Assembly (NCBI GenBank): GCA_038243585.1
Contig: JBBSQY010000041.1
Location: forward strand, 1-29,299
Direction: 5' to 3'
Length of the DNA stretch: 29,299 nucleotides
Source of the DNA: Candidatus Sumerlaeales bacterium
GTDB taxonomy: Bacteria > Sumerlaeota > Sumerlaeia > Sumerlaeales > Sumerlaeaceae
This document shows positions 2,846 to 17,789 of the stretch, piece by piece. The notes under the pieces are model-generated. The model saw nothing but the letters and a program-made list of their open reading frames with translations. It made no database searches and was not told the origin of the DNA. The first letter of the stretch is position 1. Each line of letters starts with the position of its first letter. The translations under genes were made by a program, and so were the position numbers.

Positions 2846-5059
2846 ATGCGTTGCTTAAAAATCGTGGTGCTAAAGGTTTTAACGGTCGTGGTGCTTCCGG
2901 CAATCGGGGGCGCCGCCGCTGAGAATGCCGCTTCAACCGACCCCCCTGCTCGTCCAAATATTGTCATCATCATGTCCGACGACATGGGCTTTTCAGATAT
3001 TGGCACCTACGGCGGCGAAATCCAGACGCCAGCCCTCGATAGCTTGGCCGCCGGCGGCAAAAAGTTTACCCAATTTTACAATACCGCCCGCTGCTGCCCG
3101 TCCCGCGCCAGTCTGCTGACGGGCCTTTATCCGCACCAGGCCGGCATCGGCCACCTGATCTACCAAACGCCTCATCTCGGATACGGCGACCACCTGACCA
3201 GCGACAGCGTTACCCTGGCCGAGGTGTTGCGCGGCGCGGGATATTCCACCTATATGGCGGGCAAATGGCACATGGCCCCGCGGACCTACGATCCCAAAAA
3301 GGACGCAGAACACTGGCCCATCCGCCGGGGCTTCGATAAGTTCTACGGCACCATCGCCGGCAGCGGAAACTTCTATGATCCGATGACCCTCTGCCGCGGC
3401 GAAACTCTCATCACCCCGGAAAACGATCCGGAGTATAAGCCGAAGAACTACTATTACACAGACGCTCTGTCAGACAACGCCATCACCTTCTTGAACGACC
3501 ACCATGCACAATCCAAAGAGAAACCCTTCTTCCTTTATCTAGCCTACACGGCGGCTCACTGGCCGATACAGGCGCCAGACGACGCCATCGCTCCCTATCG
3601 GGGGAAATACGACAGCGGATATGCCGCGCCCCACGCCGCGCGCCTCGCCCGGCTGAAAGAAATGGGCCTAATCCCCGAGGTGGGAGAAACGGCAGCCCCA
3701 GTGGGCGAGTGGGACAAGGTGAAAAACAAGCAGGTGGAATCCGCGCTCATGGAAACTTATGCGGCGATGGTGACGCGAATGGACAAGGGCATAGGCAAAC
3801 TCGTAGAGCAGCTTCGCGCGTCGGGTCAATTGGACAACACGCTGATCTTTTATCTGCAGGATAATGGCGGCTGCGCTGAAGACGGATTCAGCGACATTAC
3901 GAAGTATGCAAAATCTCTTAAGCCCATGAACCCCGATGAACTTCAAACCCGGGCCCAGCCGCCCATGCAGACGCGGGATGGCCGACCTGTTCTCACAGGC
4001 GCCAACGTGATGCCCGGCCCGGCGGATACTTATCGCGCGTACAAGGAAAACTGGGCGAACGTGTCCAATAGTCCGTTTCGCAGCTACAAGCATTTCGTCC
4101 ACGAAGGAGGCATCAGCACTCCGCTGATAGCCCACTGGCCGGAGCGGATTCATCCCACGTCGGCCACCCAGGTTGTGCGCACACCGGCACATCTGATCGA
4201 TATTATGGCAACCTGTCTGGACGTAACCGGCGCAGCTTATCCGACCGAACGTAACGGCATAAAAGTGCAGCCTATGGAAGGCGTGTCTCTCGCGCCAACC
4301 CTTACAGATGTCGGGCCAATTGAGCGCGACAAACCCATCTTTTTTGAACACGAGGGCAATCGCGCCGTTCGCGATGGGCAGTGGAAGATTGTGGCCGTAT
4401 CAGAAAAAGGCGCGTGGGAACTTTATGATATGAGCATTGACCGGGGCGAGATGACTGATCTTGCAAAGCAGCAGCCGGACCGGGTGAAGTCGATGGCCGC
4501 TCAGTGGGATGCATGGGCTGCGCGTTCGCGCGTGCTGCCCCTTGGTGGCTGGCGAGACCGCCGGGATGAAAAGAAAGAAGCACCGGAAGGAACTGCAAAG
4601 CGTGTGGTGCTGAAGCAGGGGGATGCGCTGCCTAGGGAAAAGAGCCTGGCACTGCAAGGTAAGGGAGTGAGCATTACTGCGGAAATTTTAAGCGGGCCTG
4701 TAGAAGGTGTTATAGTGGCGCAGGGGGCAAGCCAGGATGGCTTTTCATTGTACGTAAAAGACGGGATCCTTTATCTGGTAACAACCGCAGGCTTTAGTAA
4801 AGTCGTGGATAGAATGCCTCAAGCGACCTTGCCGGAAATGTCATTCACCATCAATTATACACTAACAGCTAAAGGTGATGCCCAGCTTAAAATGGGGAAT
4901 CAACGGACGGATTTCTCAAGCGCCTTTCGCGGATTTAGACAAACCCCGGCACAGGGCATCAGCGCCGGTTTCGATTCGGAAACCCCTGTTGGCAAATATC
5001 CTCGCGAGTTCCCCTTCCGGGGCAAACTTGGAACAGTCACAGTAGAGACGATTGATTAA
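2846..5059 (+). CDS. Arylsulfatase (Cys/formylglycine-dependent, family S1), secreted, with C-terminal concanavalin/LamG-like beta domain
   Basis: Signal-peptide-like N-terminus; PNIVIIMSDDMG; CCPSRASLLTG (CxPxR); GYSTYMAGKWH; AAHWP; QDNGG; EGGISTP; WELYD. The C-terminal ~150 aa (GVIVAQGA..GFSLYVKDG..FPFRGKL) resemble a beta-sandwich. Confidence 0.93.
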   Translation: MRCLKIVVLKVLTVVVLPAIGGAAAENAASTDPPARPNIVIIMSDDMGFSDIGTYGGEIQTPALDSLAAGGKKFTQFYNTARCCPSRASLLTGLYPHQAGIGHLIYQTPHLGYGDHLTSDSVTLAEVLRGAGYSTYMAGKWHMAPRTYDPKKDAEHWPIRRGFDKFYGTIAGSGNFYDPMTLCRGETLITPENDPEYKPKNYYYTDALSDNAITFLNDHHAQSKEKPFFLYLAYTAAHWPIQAPDDAIAPYRGKYDSGYAAPHAARLARLKEMGLIPEVGETAAPVGEWDKVKNKQVESALMETYAAMVTRMDKGIGKLVEQLRASGQLDNTLIFYLQDNGGCAEDGFSDITKYAKSLKPMNPDELQTRAQPPMQTRDGRPVLTGANVMPGPADTYRAYKENWANVSNSPFRSYKHFVHEGGISTPLIAHWPERIHPTSATQVVRTPAHLIDIMATCLDVTGAAYPTERNGIKVQPMEGVSLAPTLTDVGPIERDKPIFFEHEGNRAVRDGQWKIVAVSEKGAWELYDMSIDRGEMTDLAKQQPDRVKSMAAQWDAWAARSRVLPLGGWRDRRDEKKEAPEGTAKRVVLKQGDALPREKSLALQGKGVSITAEILSGPVEGVIVAQGASQDGFSLYVKDGILYLVTTAGFSKVVDRMPQATLPEMSFTINYTLTAKGDAQLKMGNQRTDFSSAFRGFRQTPAQGISAGFDSETPVGKYPREFPFRGKLGTVTVETID

Positions 5060-5071
5060 TGAATCGCTACC

Positions 5072-5096
5072 GTAAGATAGACATTCCTGCCTGTAC
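5072..5096 (+). repeat. Degenerate REP-like palindrome
   Basis: GTAAGATAGACATTCCTGCCTGTAC has a GTAG-like head plus an imperfect stem, just after the sulfatase-1 stop. Only one copy seen. Confidence 0.3.
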
Positions 5097-5202
5097 CAGA
5101 AACCGATTTTGAAAACGAAGATATCTATAATAATCTAAAGACTTTACCAGAAAGGCCGGTGGGATCGACAAAAATACTATCCCCCTGATCAGGATCCATG
5201 AC

Positions 5203-7368
5203 ATGAAAAAAACCATTTTACTTAACATTGCGCTGGCAGCGCTATTTCCATCTGCTGCTGTGGCAGAACCAGTCCGCCCCAACATTCTTGTCATCCTTGC
5301 GGATGACCTTGGCTGGTCCGATATCGGTGCGTTTGGCGGAGAGATTCGCACTCCACATTTGGATTCCCTGGCCGCCGGCGGCACAAAATTTACCCAGTTC
5401 TACAACACGGCCCGCTGCTGCCCTTCCCGCGCCAGTTTGTTAACGGGCCTATACCCGCACCAGGCGGGAATCGGTCATATGTTATGGCCCACTGGCTACC
5501 CCGGGTATTCCACTCGGTTGACAAGCGATTCCGTTACCATTGCGGAGGTGCTGCACGACTCCGGCTACGGCACGTATATGACCGGCAAGTGGCACATGGC
5601 GGAGCGAGAACCTGATCCAGCCGATCCAACTGGCTGGCCGCTTCAGCGCGGCTTCGATAAGTTCTACGGCACCCTGGCCGGTTATGGCAGTTTCTATGAT
5701 CCTGCGACCCTTTGCCGGGGCAACACCTATATTACGCCGGAAAATGATCCGGAATACAAGACGGATAATTTCTACTATACGGATGCCATAAGCGACAACG
5801 CCGTCGGCTTCATTAAAGAACACAAGGAAGGCGACGCGGATAAGCCATTTTTTATGTACGTGGCATATACGGCGGCCCACTGGCCTCTCCATGTTCCGGA
5901 AGACTCGCTGGCAGAATATCGCGGCAAGTATGACGTGGGATACGATGCCATCCGCGACAAACGAATAGAGCGCCTGCGAGAACTCGGCCTTATTTCCAAC
6001 GTGGGTGCTGTCGCCCCCACCACTGGCGACTGGAACGCCGTGGAAGATAAAGCCTGGGAAGCTCGACGCATGGAAGCCTACGCAGCAATGATCACTCGCA
6101 TGGACGCTGGGATTGGCAAGATTATCGACCACCTGAAAGAAACCGGACAGCTCGAGAACACTCTGGTGCTTTATATCCAGGATAACGGTGGATGTGATGA
6201 GGAGTTTTTTCACAACAATCATAAAAAACCTGACAACGTTCACGTCATGGGGCCGAACGAACTCCAGACCCGGACCCTGCCTCCGATGCAGACCCGCGAC
6301 GGTCGCGTAGTTAAAACCGGTGCAGGCGTAATGGCCGGGCCCGACGACAGCTTTTTGGGGTATGGTCCTGCATGGGCAAACGTGTCAAATACACCGTTGC
6401 GCCTGGTGAAAAAGAACGCCCACGAGGGCGGCATCAGCACGCCGCTCATTGTCCACCTGCCCGCCAGTATGAAAAGCGCCGGAAGTAAAGTCGTGTCAAC
6501 CGCAGGGCACTTGATCGACATTATGCCGACCATTCTTGAAGTGAGCAAGGCTCAGTATCCCACAGAGCGCGACGGAATAAAAATCCTTCCGATGGAAGGG
6601 AAATCCCTTGTTCCGCTTCTGACCGGAGCTGGCCTCTTCACCCGCAACGAGCCCCTCTTCTGGGAGCATGAAGAAAACAGAGCAGTCCGTTGGGGGAAGT
6701 GGAAGCTCGTGGCGGAAGCAAACAAACCCTGGGAGTTGTACGACATGGAAGCGGATCGGGCCGAAATGAACAATGTCGCGATCAGCAATTATGGCGGCGT
6801 ATCAAAAATGATATCTGAGTGGCAAAACTACGCGGAGCGCGCGAAAGTCCAGCCGCTGGGGGCTCATCGATTGCGCACGCGCACCCCCGATCCTGAAAAC
6901 GCGCCGCGCCGGCTTGAATTGGAAACGGGCGATGTGTATGCGAGGGAATACGCGCCGGCCCTTTCCGACGCCGGAGTCAGCATCACCGCTCATATTTCAA
7001 AGCTCGCGCCCCAAGGTGTGATCGTGGCCCAGGGCGCAGAAGCCCATGGATACGCACTCTACCTAAAGGACGGATATGCGCATTTTGTGGTTCGTCGTGA
7101 GCGTGAGCTCCTGGATGTGACGTCAGGGCATATCGCCGCAGAAGGACCGGTAACGATTTCAGCACGACTGGAGCGCAACGGAACAGCGACGATTAAAGTC
7201 AATGACTCAGCTGAGAAAACCAAACAGTTTTATGGACCACTGCTTGAAACCCCGACTGAAGCCCTTACTGTAGGATGGGATCAGGGCGGACCTGTCGGAG
7301 ATTATCCACAGAGCTTTTCGTTTCAGGGTATGATAAGCAAAGTGGAGTTGGAAACGTTACACAAGTAA
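5203..7368 (+). CDS. Arylsulfatase paralogue (family S1), secreted, with C-terminal concanavalin/LamG-like domain
   Basis: Signal peptide MKKTILLNIALAALFPSAAVA; PNILVILADDLG; FTQFYNTARCCPSRASLLTGLYPHQAGIGH is identical to the upstream paralogue; same domain layout. Confidence 0.93.
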   Translation: MKKTILLNIALAALFPSAAVAEPVRPNILVILADDLGWSDIGAFGGEIRTPHLDSLAAGGTKFTQFYNTARCCPSRASLLTGLYPHQAGIGHMLWPTGYPGYSTRLTSDSVTIAEVLHDSGYGTYMTGKWHMAEREPDPADPTGWPLQRGFDKFYGTLAGYGSFYDPATLCRGNTYITPENDPEYKTDNFYYTDAISDNAVGFIKEHKEGDADKPFFMYVAYTAAHWPLHVPEDSLAEYRGKYDVGYDAIRDKRIERLRELGLISNVGAVAPTTGDWNAVEDKAWEARRMEAYAAMITRMDAGIGKIIDHLKETGQLENTLVLYIQDNGGCDEEFFHNNHKKPDNVHVMGPNELQTRTLPPMQTRDGRVVKTGAGVMAGPDDSFLGYGPAWANVSNTPLRLVKKNAHEGGISTPLIVHLPASMKSAGSKVVSTAGHLIDIMPTILEVSKAQYPTERDGIKILPMEGKSLVPLLTGAGLFTRNEPLFWEHEENRAVRWGKWKLVAEANKPWELYDMEADRAEMNNVAISNYGGVSKMISEWQNYAERAKVQPLGAHRLRTRTPDPENAPRRLELETGDVYAREYAPALSDAGVSITAHISKLAPQGVIVAQGAEAHGYALYLKDGYAHFVVRRERELLDVTSGHIAAEGPVTISARLERNGTATIKVNDSAEKTKQFYGPLLETPTEALTVGWDQGGPVGDYPQSFSFQGMISKVELETLHK

Positions 7369-12560: not shown

Positions 12561-14477
12561 ATGAACATACTTTCCGCTCAAAGCGTTACCAAGTCCCACG
12601 GCATCAAGCTACTTTTCACAAATCTCTCATTCGGCATCGAAGATAACGACCGCGTCGGCGTGATCGGCGCAAACGGCAGCGGCAAGAGCACCCTGCTCAA
12701 ACTCCTGGCAGGGGAGGAGCCTGCCGACAGCGGCCAGGTGACAGTGCGACAGGGAACCCGCATTGAATATGCGCCGCAGAACCCGGCCTTCAATCCAGCG
12801 CACTCGGTTTTGGACCACATTTTCTCCGCCCATACGGAACTCTCAGACGTACTAAGGGAATATGAAGAGCTCTGCTGCCGCCTCGAAGCCGGACACACCC
12901 AGGTAGACGAAGATCGCCTCGCAGAAGTAATGATGCGCCTCGACGCCATGCAGGGCTGGGAGTATGAGACCAAGGCGCGAACGGTCCTGGCCAAACTTGG
13001 CGTGACAGACCTGACTGCGTCCATGAGCAGCCTGTCTGGCGGCTACCGCAAGCGTGTGACCCTCGCGCGCGCGCTGCTGGCAGAGGCCGATCTGCTGATT
13101 CTCGATGAGCCGACCAACCATCTTGACGCGGACACGGTTTCCTGGCTGGAAGATTATCTTAATCGCATGAGCGGAGCGCTTCTGCTCGTAACCCATGACC
13201 GGTATTTTCTGGACCGTGTAACGAAGCGGATCATCGAACTGGATAACGGCGAGTTGCGGGCCTATGAAGGCAACTTTACCTATTACCTGGAAAAGAAAGC
13301 AGAGCAGGAGGCGGCAGACGTCCGGACGGATGAGCGCCGCAGAAGCATACTCCGTAAGGAACTCGAGTGGCTCAGCCGTGGCGCACGGGCGCGCCGGACA
13401 AAGGAAAAACATCGCGTCGTCAACGTGAGAGAAATGCAGGCAGCCGGGCCTATGCGCAAGGCGGACGCGCTGAAATTTGAATCCGGTGGGCGCCGCCTGG
13501 GCAGCAAGATTGTCGAGATGGAAGACGTGTCGAAATCCCTTGGCGGGCGTACCCTCATCAAGGATTTCACCTACACCATCGCCCCCGGCGAACGCATGGG
13601 CATTTTAGGACCGAACGGCGCGGGCAAAACCACGCTGGTTAATCTTATCAGCGGAAAAATTCTGCCGGACTCCGGGACAATCGAGCTTGGCAGCACAGTC
13701 CAATTTGGATTTTTTGATCAGGAAAGCGCCGGTCTGGATATGGAAGAGCGGGCCATCGATTACGTGAAACGGGACGGCGGTGAAAACCTGAAAGGACCCG
13801 ACGGGTCCGTGCTGTCGGCAGAGCGGATGATGGAACGCTTTCTTTTCACTCCCCAGATGCTGTTCCAGGTGATCGGCAAGCTGTCCGGCGGCGAGCGGCG
13901 GCGGCTGTATTTGGTGCGGACGCTGATGAAAGATCCCAACTTCCTGATTCTGGATGAGCCCACAAACGACCTCGACATCCCGACGCTGCAGGCGCTGGAG
14001 GATTTTCTGGACGGGTTCGGCGGGTGCCTGCTGGTGGTGTCTCATGATCGGTATTTCCTCGATCGCACCGTGAATCACCTGTTGGCCGTCGAGGGAGACG
14101 GCGTGTTGCGTGACTACTCCGGCGATTACAGCCATTACGAGCAGACACGGGTTGCGCGTGCTGCGGAGGACATGGGCGTTGGCAAGCCGGCGTCCAAGCC
14201 CACCGCCTCCGAACAGAAACCAGCCGCAGCCGTGGAGGAAACGCCCGGCACTTCCCGAAAGAAGCTAAGCTTCAAAGAGCAGCGCGAACTGACGGAACTG
14301 GAAGAAAACTTCGTGAAATGGGAAAAGCGGATAAAGGCGATCGAACAGGAACTGTCCGTGCCATCGAGCGATTATAGCATACTTCAGGATCTTACCCGTG
14401 AACAGACAGACCTACAGGCAAAGCTCGATACCGGAATGGAACGGTGGGCGTCGCTGTCAGAGCGGGCCGGGGTTTGA
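12561..14477 (+). CDS. uup: ABC-F family ATPase (Uup-like)
   Basis: Two ABC domains with no TM segments: GANGSGKST / LSGGYRKR / LDEPTNHLD and GPNGAGKTT / LSGGERRR / LDEPTNDLD. Linker ELEWLSRGARARRTK; C-terminal KLSFKEQREL coiled coil ending MERWASL. Confidence 0.92.
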   Translation: MNILSAQSVTKSHGIKLLFTNLSFGIEDNDRVGVIGANGSGKSTLLKLLAGEEPADSGQVTVRQGTRIEYAPQNPAFNPAHSVLDHIFSAHTELSDVLREYEELCCRLEAGHTQVDEDRLAEVMMRLDAMQGWEYETKARTVLAKLGVTDLTASMSSLSGGYRKRVTLARALLAEADLLILDEPTNHLDADTVSWLEDYLNRMSGALLLVTHDRYFLDRVTKRIIELDNGELRAYEGNFTYYLEKKAEQEAADVRTDERRRSILRKELEWLSRGARARRTKEKHRVVNVREMQAAGPMRKADALKFESGGRRLGSKIVEMEDVSKSLGGRTLIKDFTYTIAPGERMGILGPNGAGKTTLVNLISGKILPDSGTIELGSTVQFGFFDQESAGLDMEERAIDYVKRDGGENLKGPDGSVLSAERMMERFLFTPQMLFQVIGKLSGGERRRLYLVRTLMKDPNFLILDEPTNDLDIPTLQALEDFLDGFGGCLLVVSHDRYFLDRTVNHLLAVEGDGVLRDYSGDYSHYEQTRVARAAEDMGVGKPASKPTASEQKPAAAVEETPGTSRKKLSFKEQRELTELEENFVKWEKRIKAIEQELSVPSSDYSILQDLTREQTDLQAKLDTGMERWASLSERAGV

Positions 14478-14481
14478 TTCC

Positions 14482-14653
14482 TGGCGCATAACCGGGACGG
14501 CAGCGTTCCCTCAGACAATAGAGATCCCCGGACGGTTGCTCAGGCCGCCCGGGGCTGTTAAGGAGGTAGTTCTCGCCACCGGTCGGGGTTCAGCTAACCG
14601 GTGGCCTCTTCGTGTTCTCTCACACGAGGGGGTATAAGGCAAGGACGGTGCCA
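14482..14653 (-). ncRNA. Candidate structured non-coding RNA with four hairpins and an exposed anti-Shine-Dalgarno sequence
   Basis: Terminal pairing TGGCGC(14482-87)/GTGCCA(14648-53). Internal stems at 14494-14510, 14526-14554, 14575-14605 (perfect 9 bp GCCACCGGT/ACCGGTGGC) and 14606-14631. ACCTCCTTA on the minus strand at 14559-14567. Strand assigned from recalled similarity to the E. coli ykfJ-prfH upstream region (unverified). Confidence 0.55.
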
Positions 14654-14807
14654 TCAAATTTTCATGCTTTGATAGCAGAGGAAATCAAAAATATCTCCAG
14701 TGCTTTTTAGAGATAATTAATATCGATTTTACCGTACAGCACTACATCTATAGTGGTTAGGAAAAACGAAAAATGCGATCTCCAGGCGGCATGCTCCGTC
14801 TCAAACT

Positions 14808-17789
14808 CTAAAGGATTTCCGCCAGAAATCGCCCGGTGTGACTTTCTGTCACCTGTGCTATCGCGGTCGGGGGACCGCATGCGACCAATTGACCACCCCC
14901 CGAGCCCGCTTCCGGCCCGAGGTCGATTACCCAGTCAGCCTGACGGATGATTTCCAGGTTATGCTCGATGATCAGCAGAGAATACCCGCGCTCCGTCAAC
15001 TGGCGAAACACCCGCGACAGCACGGCGAGGTCAGCAAGGTGGAGACCAGTCGTAGGCTCATCGAAAATCATCATCGTGCGAAGGCCCGTCGTCGCGCCCG
15101 TGTTAGACAGGTAGCTGGCCAGCTTGAGCCGCTGCGCCTCACCCCCGGACAGGGTCGCTGTACTTTGACCAAGGGTCAAATACCCCAGCCCAACGTCCCG
15201 CAGAGGCAGCAGGCGCTTAATAACCGCAGGTTGATCGGCGAAAAACTCGTTGGCGTCATCCACCGTCATACCCAGGATATCATCCACGTTCTTGTCATTC
15301 CAGGTAATCTCTAATACCCGGTTGCCGAACCGTTTCCCATCGCAATCCTCACACGGCAGCGTGACCTCCGCCAGGAAGTGCATGTCATAGGTTACTAGCC
15401 CCGCGCCCTCGCAGGTCTCGCATCGCCCGCCTGGCACGTTGAAAGAGAAATACGTCTCTGTGATGCCCTTGCTTTTGGCTTCTCGCGTGTTCGCAAGCAG
15501 CTTGCGAATGGGGTCGTATGCCTTGACGTAAGTGGCGGGATTGCTGCGGCTGGATCGCCCGATGGCGGATTGGTCCACCAGAATAATGGAACTCAGCTGA
15601 GTCAGCCCTTCCATATTGTCAAACCGCCCGACATCTTCAGAGGACAGTCCCATGGCCTGGTTAAAGCCCTGGAACAGGATGTTGTGTACAAGAGTGGATT
15701 TTCCGCTGCCGGAGACCCCGGAGATGCAGACCCAACAGTTGAGCGGTATGTCCACATTCAGCTTGTTGAGATTGTTTTCCCTGGCGCCCGTGATACGGAT
15801 AAACGGCTCAGGGCAAGGGAGACAGGATTCCGCTTTACCGGCAGACCCAATGGCGGTTTTTGATTTCTTCGGAGAAGTCGCCTTCGATTTCGCCGGTTTG
15901 GCTTTTGCTTTTCCTTTGGCTGCTGCGGCTTCAGGCTGGGATTCAGATAGAGCCAGGCCGGGCACCCTCTGCTCTTTAAGATAGCGCGCTGTCAGGCTTC
16001 CGTTCTTGTCTTTAAGCAAGTCCTCCGGAGTGCCATGAAACATTATCTGACCGCCGTGGCTACCGGCGGCGGGGCCAATGTCCAGCAGGAAGTCAGCCCC
16101 CAGGATCAGTTCCGGGTCATGCTCCACAACCACAACCGTGTTCCCTTTGTCCCGAAGATCCCGCAGGATGCCTAGCAACTTGCGGCTGTCGCGCGGATGC
16201 AGACCGACGGTCGGCTCGTCCAGCACATACAGGGTTTGCGTAAGGGCTGTCCCCAGGGCGGTAGCCAGGTTAATGCGCTGCGCCTCTCCGCCGGAAAGGG
16301 TGCGCGTCTGCCGGTCGAGGGTCAGATATCCCAGGCCGACCCGGTGCAAATACTGCAGACGCACAAGGATCTCCCGATGGACACGCCCAATGGCCTGCTG
16401 CTCATGGGGGAGCAGTTCGATGGTTTCCCATTCCGCCAGAAACTCGCTGATACTCAATCGGGAAACATCTCCGACGGCGCGCCGCTGCCATGCCGATCCC
16501 GCCGTCTCCGGCGCCCAAAACACGTTGTGGGCCGGGCGGGCCAGGCGGGTTCCCCGACACTGAGGGCACTCCGTATATCCGCGATAGCGCGCCACCATTA
16601 TACGCGACTGCACCTTATATCGTTCCGTCTCTAAATCCTTAAAAAACGAAACAATACCCTTATGACCTTTCATCCCATATTTCAGGATGTCGATCTGGTC
16701 CTGCGGCAAATCTTCCAGCGGAACATCAAAAGGGATTTTAGCAAACTGCGCGGTTTTAGTCAGCCATCGATAATTGATTTTGTAGCTGGGCGAGTTAAAC
16801 GGCGCGACCGGTCCATCATTAAGGTTCAATGAGATATTAGGCAACACCTTGTCCCAGTCCACGCCCGTCACGCGGCCAAAGCCTCCGCATTCCTGACAGG
16901 CGCCAAGGGGGCTGTTAAAGGAAAACATATTCGGTTCCGGACGGGGGAAATCCTGACCGCAGTTGTTACACCGATAACCCAGGCGAAAGATCCTCGGCTT
17001 TGCTTTTTCTTCCGCAGACCCGTCCGCAAGGTACACTTCCGCCGCGCCATGGCCAGCCTGAAAGGCTGTGGCAATGGATGACGACATTCGGTCGCGATCG
17101 TCTGCCGACACAGCCAGCCGATCAATAAGCACATGGAGCGTCTTAGAGTCCAGCGCATGATCGGGGACAACAGGGTTGCCCTCGTCCAGTTCAATAAAGG
17201 GGCGGTCGCCTACTCCGGTGTAGATGCGGGTGAAGCCAGCCCGCACAAGCTCGCGAATCAGCGCGTCGCCGGTCACAGCTACACTGTGGGCAATCGGCGC
17301 GACCACATAGACCCGCGCGCCGTCGTGATTTTTAAGATAATATTCCGTCACCGACTGCGGGGAATCCTCCCGGACTTCAATGTCGCAGTTGGGGCAGATC
17401 GTCTTGCCGGCTTTGGCGTAAAGCAGGCGCAGGTAATCAGAAATCTCCGTCGCCGTGCCGATGGTGCTGCGGGCGTTCTTAACCGTATTCTTCTGCTCAA
17501 TGGCGATGGCCGGTTGAATGTTGCGGACGTGATCCACGTCCGGGCGCTCCATCTTTTCGATGAACTGCCGGGCGTACGTGCTCATGCTTTCGACAAAGCG
17601 GCGCTGTCCCTCGGCGTAGAGGGTGTCGAAGGCGAGAGACGATTTACCGCTCCCTGACGGGCCGGTTACGACGGTCAGTTTTCCGAGAGGAATTTCCACA
17701 GAAATGTTTTTAAGGTTATGGGTTCTGGCGCCGAGGATTTCAATAAAACGGCGATTATGGCGGACGGGCGGTTTTGGAGGCATAGTCAC
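14808..17789 (-). CDS. uvrA: Excinuclease ABC subunit UvrA
   Basis: GARTHNLKN, Walker [28 protein letters not shown], two LSGGEAQR signatures, second Walker [10 protein letters not shown], zinc finger CETCEG..CEDCDG, DLGPEAG. Start is GTG 17789 or ATG 17783. Confidence 0.97.

Follow-up and report, generated by a model that had tools for sequence, protein, structure and literature searches.

The window analysed here, a 29,299-nt stretch of genomic DNA from a Candidatus Sumerlaeales bacterium, contained a 330-bp gap between two convergent genes. The gap was bordered by a Pfam-supported uup-type ABC-F gene on the plus strand (12561-14477) and by a gene for a UvrA paralogue of 993 aa on the minus strand (14808-17789). 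The element described below lay within this gap and was present in single copy in the genome (G000; 3.43 Mb, 89.7% complete), which ruled out a repeat or mobile element. No tRNA or tmRNA was found in the region and no Rfam 15 family matched the window at the gathering threshold, the best weak matches being Flavo-1 (17.4 of 42 bits) and sX11 (13.2 of 70 bits). Downstream of the element on the minus strand there was no gene, with the strand continuing into the antisense of uup. Elsewhere in the window, the plus strand (2846-7368) carries a tandem pair of sulfatase genes (737 and 721 aa, both with Sulfatase and SGSH_C domains), with the gene of a 666-aa thioredoxin-domain protein after them. A second UvrA paralogue, ~48-50% identical, was present in the 12 of 13 family genomes (G000-G012) that carry the UvrA type of the window, and the third species of the genus (G001, 81% complete) displayed only the 50%-type UvrA.

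The nine letters TAAGGAGGT were found at 14559-14567 on the plus strand, reading ACCTCCTTA on the minus strand and placed between a stem at 14526-14554 and a second at 14575-14605, with no ATG, GTG or TTG located 2-12 nt 3' of them on the plus strand. The position, the minus-strand letters, the location between stems and the absence of a usable plus-strand start given in the original prediction were all reproduced. TAAGGAGGT was under-represented across the genome, with seven copies on both strands against ~25 expected from a GC content of 52.5% (arithmetic from composition), a scarcity that would fit selection against strong SD-like words within genes. AAGGAGGT was found 53 times on both strands and only 12 of these 53 sites had a start codon with an ORF of at least 50 aa behind them; these 12 resemble ribosome-binding sites. 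The 9-mer alone is no excess over chance, and its meaning comes from its context.

An exact-consensus sigma-54 (RpoN) promoter, TGGCAC-CGTCC-TTGC, with the GG of the -24 and the GC of the -12 element, was located on the minus strand at 14639-14653. Exact TGGCAC-N5-TTGC sites numbered 15 in the genome compared to ~7 expected from composition, and at least 10 of the 15 have an SD plus start codon 40-110 nt downstream, so most exact sites of this genome are real promoters. The exact site that lacks an ORF behind it is the one at 14653. The genome encodes the machinery required to use such promoters, with one Sigma54_DBD match for rpoN (207 bits) and six Sigma54_activat matches (170-254 bits). In the usual sigma-54 geometry transcription starts ~12 nt downstream of the C in the -12 GC, which gives a predicted +1 at 14627 (±2 nt, minus strand); the same rule applied to the related genome G002, discussed below, placed the +1 three nt before the first hairpin.

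Two further exact promoter sites gave separate observations. One, TGGCACAGCATTTGC, was located on the plus strand of the window at 1984-1999, ~55 nt upstream of an ORF (2055-2618) for a protein of 187 aa with no Pfam match, which is probably a sigma-54-dependent gene judging by this arrangement. The other, on contig G000:C2 (minus 99322), combined an exact promoter with a CCUCCC tract and a T-run and was considered as a second sRNA candidate; it was rejected on account of a frame of more than 340 codons that runs through it, and it more likely represents the leader and first part of a protein-coding gene.

The AT-rich spacer between the stop codon of the UvrA paralogue and the promoter (14654-14807, minus strand) is the expected place for an activator-binding site. 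Within it, a weak lead is GTAGTGCTGTAC (14745-14734, minus strand): G002 has a similar 12-nt stretch, GCAGCGCAGTAC, about as far from its promoter (78 vs 81 nt). The spacer was replaced in more distant relatives. No 9-mer that could serve as an activator site was meaningfully common to the other 14 sigma-54 promoters of the genome, and no activator gene adjoined the unit among the neighbourhood genes, both of which count against a regulated sRNA gene. An inverted repeat, TGCT-TTGAT-AGCA, was also observed in the spacer (14667-14679, plus strand), preceding the -24 element by 14-26 bp as read on the minus strand, and was not kept in G002.

Folding of the predicted 114-nt RNA of the window gave an MFE of -52.4 kcal/mol (z -4.4; equalled by none of 200 shuffles), and the predicted RNA of G002 (MFE -53.8 kcal/mol, z -4.0) formed the same three hairpins with the tract between stems. 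The 5' hairpin, UCGUGU-GAGAGA-ACACGA (14610-14627, minus strand), was found in the folds of both species and its 18 nt, CGTGTGAGAGAACACGAA, are the same in G002. The second hairpin (14575-14605, minus strand) has a 9-bp stem and a 13-nt loop containing ACCCCG. It is followed by a single-stranded linker of 20 nt, GAGAACU-ACCUCCUU-AACAG (14555-14574, minus strand), which lay between stems in both folds. The mean unpaired probability of ACCUCCUU was 0.62 in the window and 0.71 in G002, and a weak 3-bp GAG/CUC helix was predicted over three bases of this tract in the window, which counts against its use as a seed by an sRNA. The last hairpin (14526-14554, minus strand), with a GC-rich stem of 10 bp and a 9-nt loop, CCUGAGCAA, reads as an intrinsic terminator; it was absent from the output of the terminator scan, a tool with a loop limit of 8 compared to the loop of 9 found here. 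The 3' tail read from the sequence, AUCUCUAUUGUCU (14513-14525, minus strand), has seven U in 13 nt and is weaker than those of the relatives, and this U-poor tail in the window's own copy also counts against the sRNA reading. After the terminator hairpin of G002 the minus strand reads TTTTGGTTTTCT.

The only frame inside the unit of the window is a GUG frame of 22 codons. A small protein was rejected as the product, as that GUG is missing in G002 and indels in the linker and loop shift the frames locally between the species. The stretch thus has the make-up of a stand-alone unit, with a promoter, an intrinsic terminator (a hairpin plus a U-run in G002 and in the relatives' contigs) and no coding frame.

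A BLAST search with 223 nt against 61 related genomes resulted in one real match, to G002, a genome of the same genus (84% identity over 101 nt, E 4e-20), and all other matches were short with E above 0.006. The flanks of the element could not be aligned between the window and G002, and the protein of the UvrA paralogue shares 77% identity between them. The G002 element is again located downstream of the gene for the UvrA paralogue, and it faces a different plus-strand gene, coding for a DsbD_N protein and with its own terminator before the element; the minus strand beyond the unit is the antisense of this gene and has an overlapping minus-strand ORF with no Pfam match. Both the -24 and the -12 element of the promoter are the same in G002, with a different N5 spacer (CGTCC vs CGAGA) and different flanks. 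The terminator hairpin and its loop are almost identical, and the three loops (GAGAGA, ACCCCG and CCUGAGCAA) are identical or nearly so in the two species. In the second hairpin, all 18 of the 18 cells pair across the two species on the minus strand and two pairs are changed on both sides; in a shuffling control on these two sequences, 147 of 500 shuffles reached the observed values, a control that two sequences are too few to make significant. ACCUCCUU is the same in G002, with linker flanks that differ in length (seven vs five nt before it, five vs six nt after it).

More distant variants were obtained by comparing the contigs of relatives from public runs to positions 14300-14900 at 80% likeness or above. 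Several contigs (runs X3 and X5) matched the end of uup, then skipped to 14526-14653, and after a second skip of ~154 replaced letters matched the end of the UvrA paralogue. The block kept in these contigs is bounded by the base of the terminator (14526) and the first letter of the -24 element (14653), with both flanks replaced, and the best contig pair displayed six other letters and three gaps over it. The plus-strand letters just before 14526 are A-rich in four contig ends (X3, X5), so that on the minus strand the hairpin is followed by U-runs. These variants are known from a table of differences, with 46 further differences beyond those listed, and the full sequence is available for two copies only. 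Insertions in the linker of X3 and X5 contigs were located behind 14554, 14555, 14558, 14559, 14564, 14566 and 14571, and one loose contig end reads TAGGGAGGT. GGAGG (CCUCC on the minus strand) was kept in each contig variant listed, and the ninth letter and other flanking letters vary. The check set in the original prediction, invariance of the 9-mer among homologues, had a split outcome: the CCUCC core is present in every variant seen, and the full 9-mer varies among the relatives.

The distribution of the element was narrow. A covariance model (R1) of the promoter and RNA, built from a MAFFT alignment in which the second hairpin of G002 is one base off register, matched in two of the 13 genomes of the family and two of the 73 genomes of the class, a spread that weighs against the sRNA reading. 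An orthologue of the UvrA paralogue was present in 12 of the 13 family genomes, and in the 10 family genomes that represent other genera the orthologous gene was followed by other genes and by no such unit. The element was not found in G001 (81% complete), an absence that says little because this assembly also has no orthologue of the neighbouring gene. Metagenome pattern scans with the 5' hairpin plus terminator loop and with the 5' hairpin plus promoter resulted in no matches, and a scan of genome contigs with a terminator 20-mer found five loci, with the full model matching only at L040 (the G002 copy) and the other four matching over 15-19 nt. Across the class, a sigma-54 promoter followed within 20-110 nt by CCTCCTT was found six times compared to 14 times in a reversed control, and the four extra matches of this pattern look coding or ambiguous; the design is not enriched across the class. 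The element is most likely a genus-restricted sRNA gene that was previously unannotated.

The original prediction had noted an identity of the 9-mer to the last nine nucleotides of bacterial 16S rRNA, which we take to be the E. coli-type tail. This identity would apply to that tail, whereas the tail of the lineage itself matches over eight nt in the window. No 16S gene was present in the window's own assembly. The 16S genes of G002 and of a further family member (G007) end in GGATCACCTCCTTT with a following C, the lineage end being ACCUCCUUU, and the match to this tail comprised eight nt (ACCUCCUU) in the window and nine nt (CACCUCCUU) in G002. The likeness covers the complete anti-SD and nothing further, within a tract that is internal and has the terminator after it, and the hairpin preceding the tract is unlike helix 45. 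As a separate observation, two full-length 16S genes of G002 (G002:C318 and G002:C382; L055, L057) differ in the helix-45 region (GTAGGGGAACCTGC vs GTATCGGAAGGTGC), and the assembly also holds two partial 16S genes, which may indicate a mixed bin or divergent operons.

With a little better than even confidence, we interpret the unit as the gene of a sigma-54-dependent trans-acting sRNA of ~110 nt that would mask Shine-Dalgarno sites, with the 9-mer as its seed. Transcription of the minus strand would be directed by the promoter at 14653-14639 and run from ~14627 to the putative terminator, and the ~110-nt transcript would fold into the 5' hairpin, the second hairpin and the terminator hairpin. 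The linker of 20 nt that precedes the terminator would expose ACCUCCUU, which has the same letters as the anti-Shine-Dalgarno end of the lineage. When a sigma-54 activator fires, the sRNA would be expected to pair with the SDs of target mRNAs, best with those of the AAGGAGGU type, and this pairing would block binding of the 30S subunit and repress translation. The exposed ACCUCCUU can pair with ribosome-binding sites because the genes of this genome use GGAGG-type SDs, as observed in the contexts of the sigma-54 sites and in crude statistics. The role of the tract as a seed is also supported by its conservation, ACCUCCUU being the same in G002 and CCUCC being present in all variants seen, with full sequences for two of these copies only. 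Several roles had been offered in the original prediction, and a trans-acting SD-sequestering RNA from the minus strand is the one favoured here; the promoter and terminator had been missed.

The search for targets did not add to this reading. An exact-complement scan with the linker yielded one 13-mer, one 12-mer, eight 11-mers and 48 10-mers, and complementary sites of at least 10 nt were not enriched in the genome (58 vs ~98 expected, by arithmetic), which counts against an sRNA, as does the absence of an Hfq match in the genome (89.7% complete). No outstanding target emerged from a duplex-energy ranking over crude ORF calls, a noisy ranking.

The strict conservation of the three loops leaves room, on these alignments, for a protein-binding or loop-pairing function. 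The sigma-54 sRNA would then be real and the CCUCC tract would not be its working part, the loops instead binding a protein or pairing loop to loop and the pyrimidine tract acting as a spacer or a landing site for a protein. The loops are the same or nearly so between the species, including that of the terminator, which usually drifts, no loop differences were among those listed for the X3 and X5 contigs (46 further differences lying outside the listing), and enriched SD-type targets were not found, all of which speaks for such an RNA. However, no other part of the linker has survived the indels on either side of the tract, which equals the lineage anti-SD, and neither CsrA nor Hfq, which such an RNA might titrate, was found in the 89.7%-complete genome. 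We regard this explanation as unlikely.

An anti-SD of eight nt would bind many mRNAs, and the specificity of the proposed sRNA is consequently hard to account for. Decidedly improbable, in our estimate, is the possibility that the RNA is a general competitor, a sigma-54-switched copy of the anti-SD tail of the ribosome acting on strong SD sites and not on one or two targets. If true, this competitor would move translation off AAGGAGGU-type mRNAs on a sigma-54 signal, in a genome with no detectable Hfq or CsrA and in a phylum not known to have a described sRNA.

We give little credence to the explanation that there is no functional RNA at the locus, and that a chance sigma-54-like site lies beside GC-rich hairpins terminating the convergent genes. 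The narrow distribution of the element and the weak U-tail of the window would both be consistent with this. It conflicts with a block that is better conserved than its flanks and than the 77% identity of the neighbouring protein would suggest, with block borders that in several relatives coincide sharply with the promoter and the base of the terminator, with the compensatory changes in the stems, and with the finding that most exact sigma-54 consensus sites of this genome are real promoters.

The promoter and the U-runs were present on the minus strand only, and the wobble pairs point to the same strand. One C-G pair of the second hairpin is U.G in G002 on the minus strand and would be C.A on the plus strand, and the terminator stem of the window has one G.U that becomes A.C when read as plus strand. 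Variant 14575 G>A (X3, X5) would also form a wobble only on the minus strand if its partner is unchanged. Two other variants, 14583 T>C and 14596 A>G, were discarded as strand evidence, both being readable as a stem shift on either strand. From sequence comparison, the unit is thereby assigned to the minus strand. The original prediction had leaned towards the plus strand, proposing a 30S-binding sponge made by read-through of uup, and more broadly the plus strand could represent a uup 3' UTR or read-through product in which the SD serves to bind 30S subunits or a protein, or a cluster of terminators or stabilisers. The plus strand does fold about equally well (MFE -89.7 kcal/mol, z -3.8), no terminator is evident for uup itself, and the lower stem of the hairpin at 14606-14631 contains two G.U pairs on this strand. 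The argument from G-U pairs was correct for this lower part only, which was not kept in G002 and is located upstream of the predicted minus-strand start, whereas the wobbles of both conserved stems speak for the minus strand and are mismatches on the plus strand. The closing stem of the plus strand pairs 14499-14511 with 14640-14654 and has its left half in sequence that every relative has replaced. Furthermore, the conserved block stops at the minus-strand promoter and no plus-strand promoter was found. Read-through of uup was excluded as a common denominator because the facing gene in G002 differs and is terminated before the element, which contradicts the lean towards the plus strand. No CsrA match that could bind the GGA site was found in the genome (89.7% complete), and the single plus-strand GGA tract lies outside any loop, which does not resemble a Csr/Rsm-type sponge. 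A functional plus-strand RNA is, on balance, very unlikely.

A 16S 3'-tail mimic or decoy that diverts a nuclease, ligase, methylase or 30S-binding factor, as had been suggested for ribotoxins and RNA ligases, would account for the 8-9 nt identity to the lineage tail and for the G002 tract standing six nt after a hairpin, as the 16S tail does after helix 45 (read from the sequence letters), but it gained nothing from the analysis and is highly improbable, as the identity ends at the anti-SD core and the relatives' variants depart from the 16S tail, the terminator hairpin after the internal tract leaves no free 3' end, the preceding hairpin has no resemblance to helix 45, no RtcB was found in the 89.7%-complete genome, and no ribotoxin or repair enzyme is encoded among the neighbourhood genes.

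The favoured reading, an SD-masking sRNA under sigma-54 control, has partial counterparts in other bacteria. Pxr of Myxococcus xanthus and other myxobacteria is described as an RNA of ~108 nt with three stem-loops and a sigma-54 promoter (PMC5568312). By this description it is the closest in layout, with the size, promoter class and three hairpins of the candidate sRNA, but it belongs to a different phylum and has no sequence or Rfam relationship to it. The pxr gene is also reported directly downstream of the sigma-54 response regulator gene nla19, whereas the candidate sRNA has no nearby activator gene. The targets of Pxr are likewise reported as not known (PMC11928866). CJnc230 (FlmE) of Campylobacter jejuni is described as having two stem-loops that flank a single-stranded putative anti-Shine-Dalgarno motif, RpoN-dependent expression and a repressive effect on its target mRNAs (PMC11187230). 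The seed is placed between two stem-loops in both RNAs; according to the same account, however, CJnc230 is processed from the flgE mRNA with an anti-SD of only CCUU, whereas the candidate sRNA has a dedicated promoter and the full 8-nt anti-SD, and there is no homology between the two. Stand-alone sigma-54 sRNA genes are reported for Qrr1-5 of Vibrio and GlmY/GlmZ of enterobacteria (PMC10162802, PMC3045617). These have only the promoter class in common with the candidate sRNA, which is single copy, has no Rfam match and lies in a genome in which Hfq was not found.

Two further comparisons concern the tract itself. CT-rich insulator motifs in sigma-54 promoters are reported to silence the downstream gene (bioRxiv 10.1101/086108). 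As described, these are short CT-rich tracts tied to sigma-54 promoters, as at the candidate unit, but they act in cis on a downstream gene, whereas the candidate unit is closed by a putative terminator with no gene after it. The 3' end of 16S rRNA shares ACCUCCUU with the linker tract of the candidate RNA; the anti-SD of 16S rRNA is at its 3' end, in contrast to the internal tract found here, and the variants of the relatives differ from it outside CCUCC.

The phylum Sumerlaeota, previously called BRC1, is uncultured, and no paper on a small RNA in it came up in a full-text literature search. The unit would represent a known type of regulator in a lineage new for it and would leave the current view of sRNA mechanisms unchanged. 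For holders of an enrichment culture or metatranscriptome of the genus, it provides a testable unit of promoter, RNA and seed. The element would be the first candidate riboregulator for Sumerlaeota, and it would add an independent case of the combination of a sigma-54 promoter with an anti-SD seed, a design known from myxobacteria.
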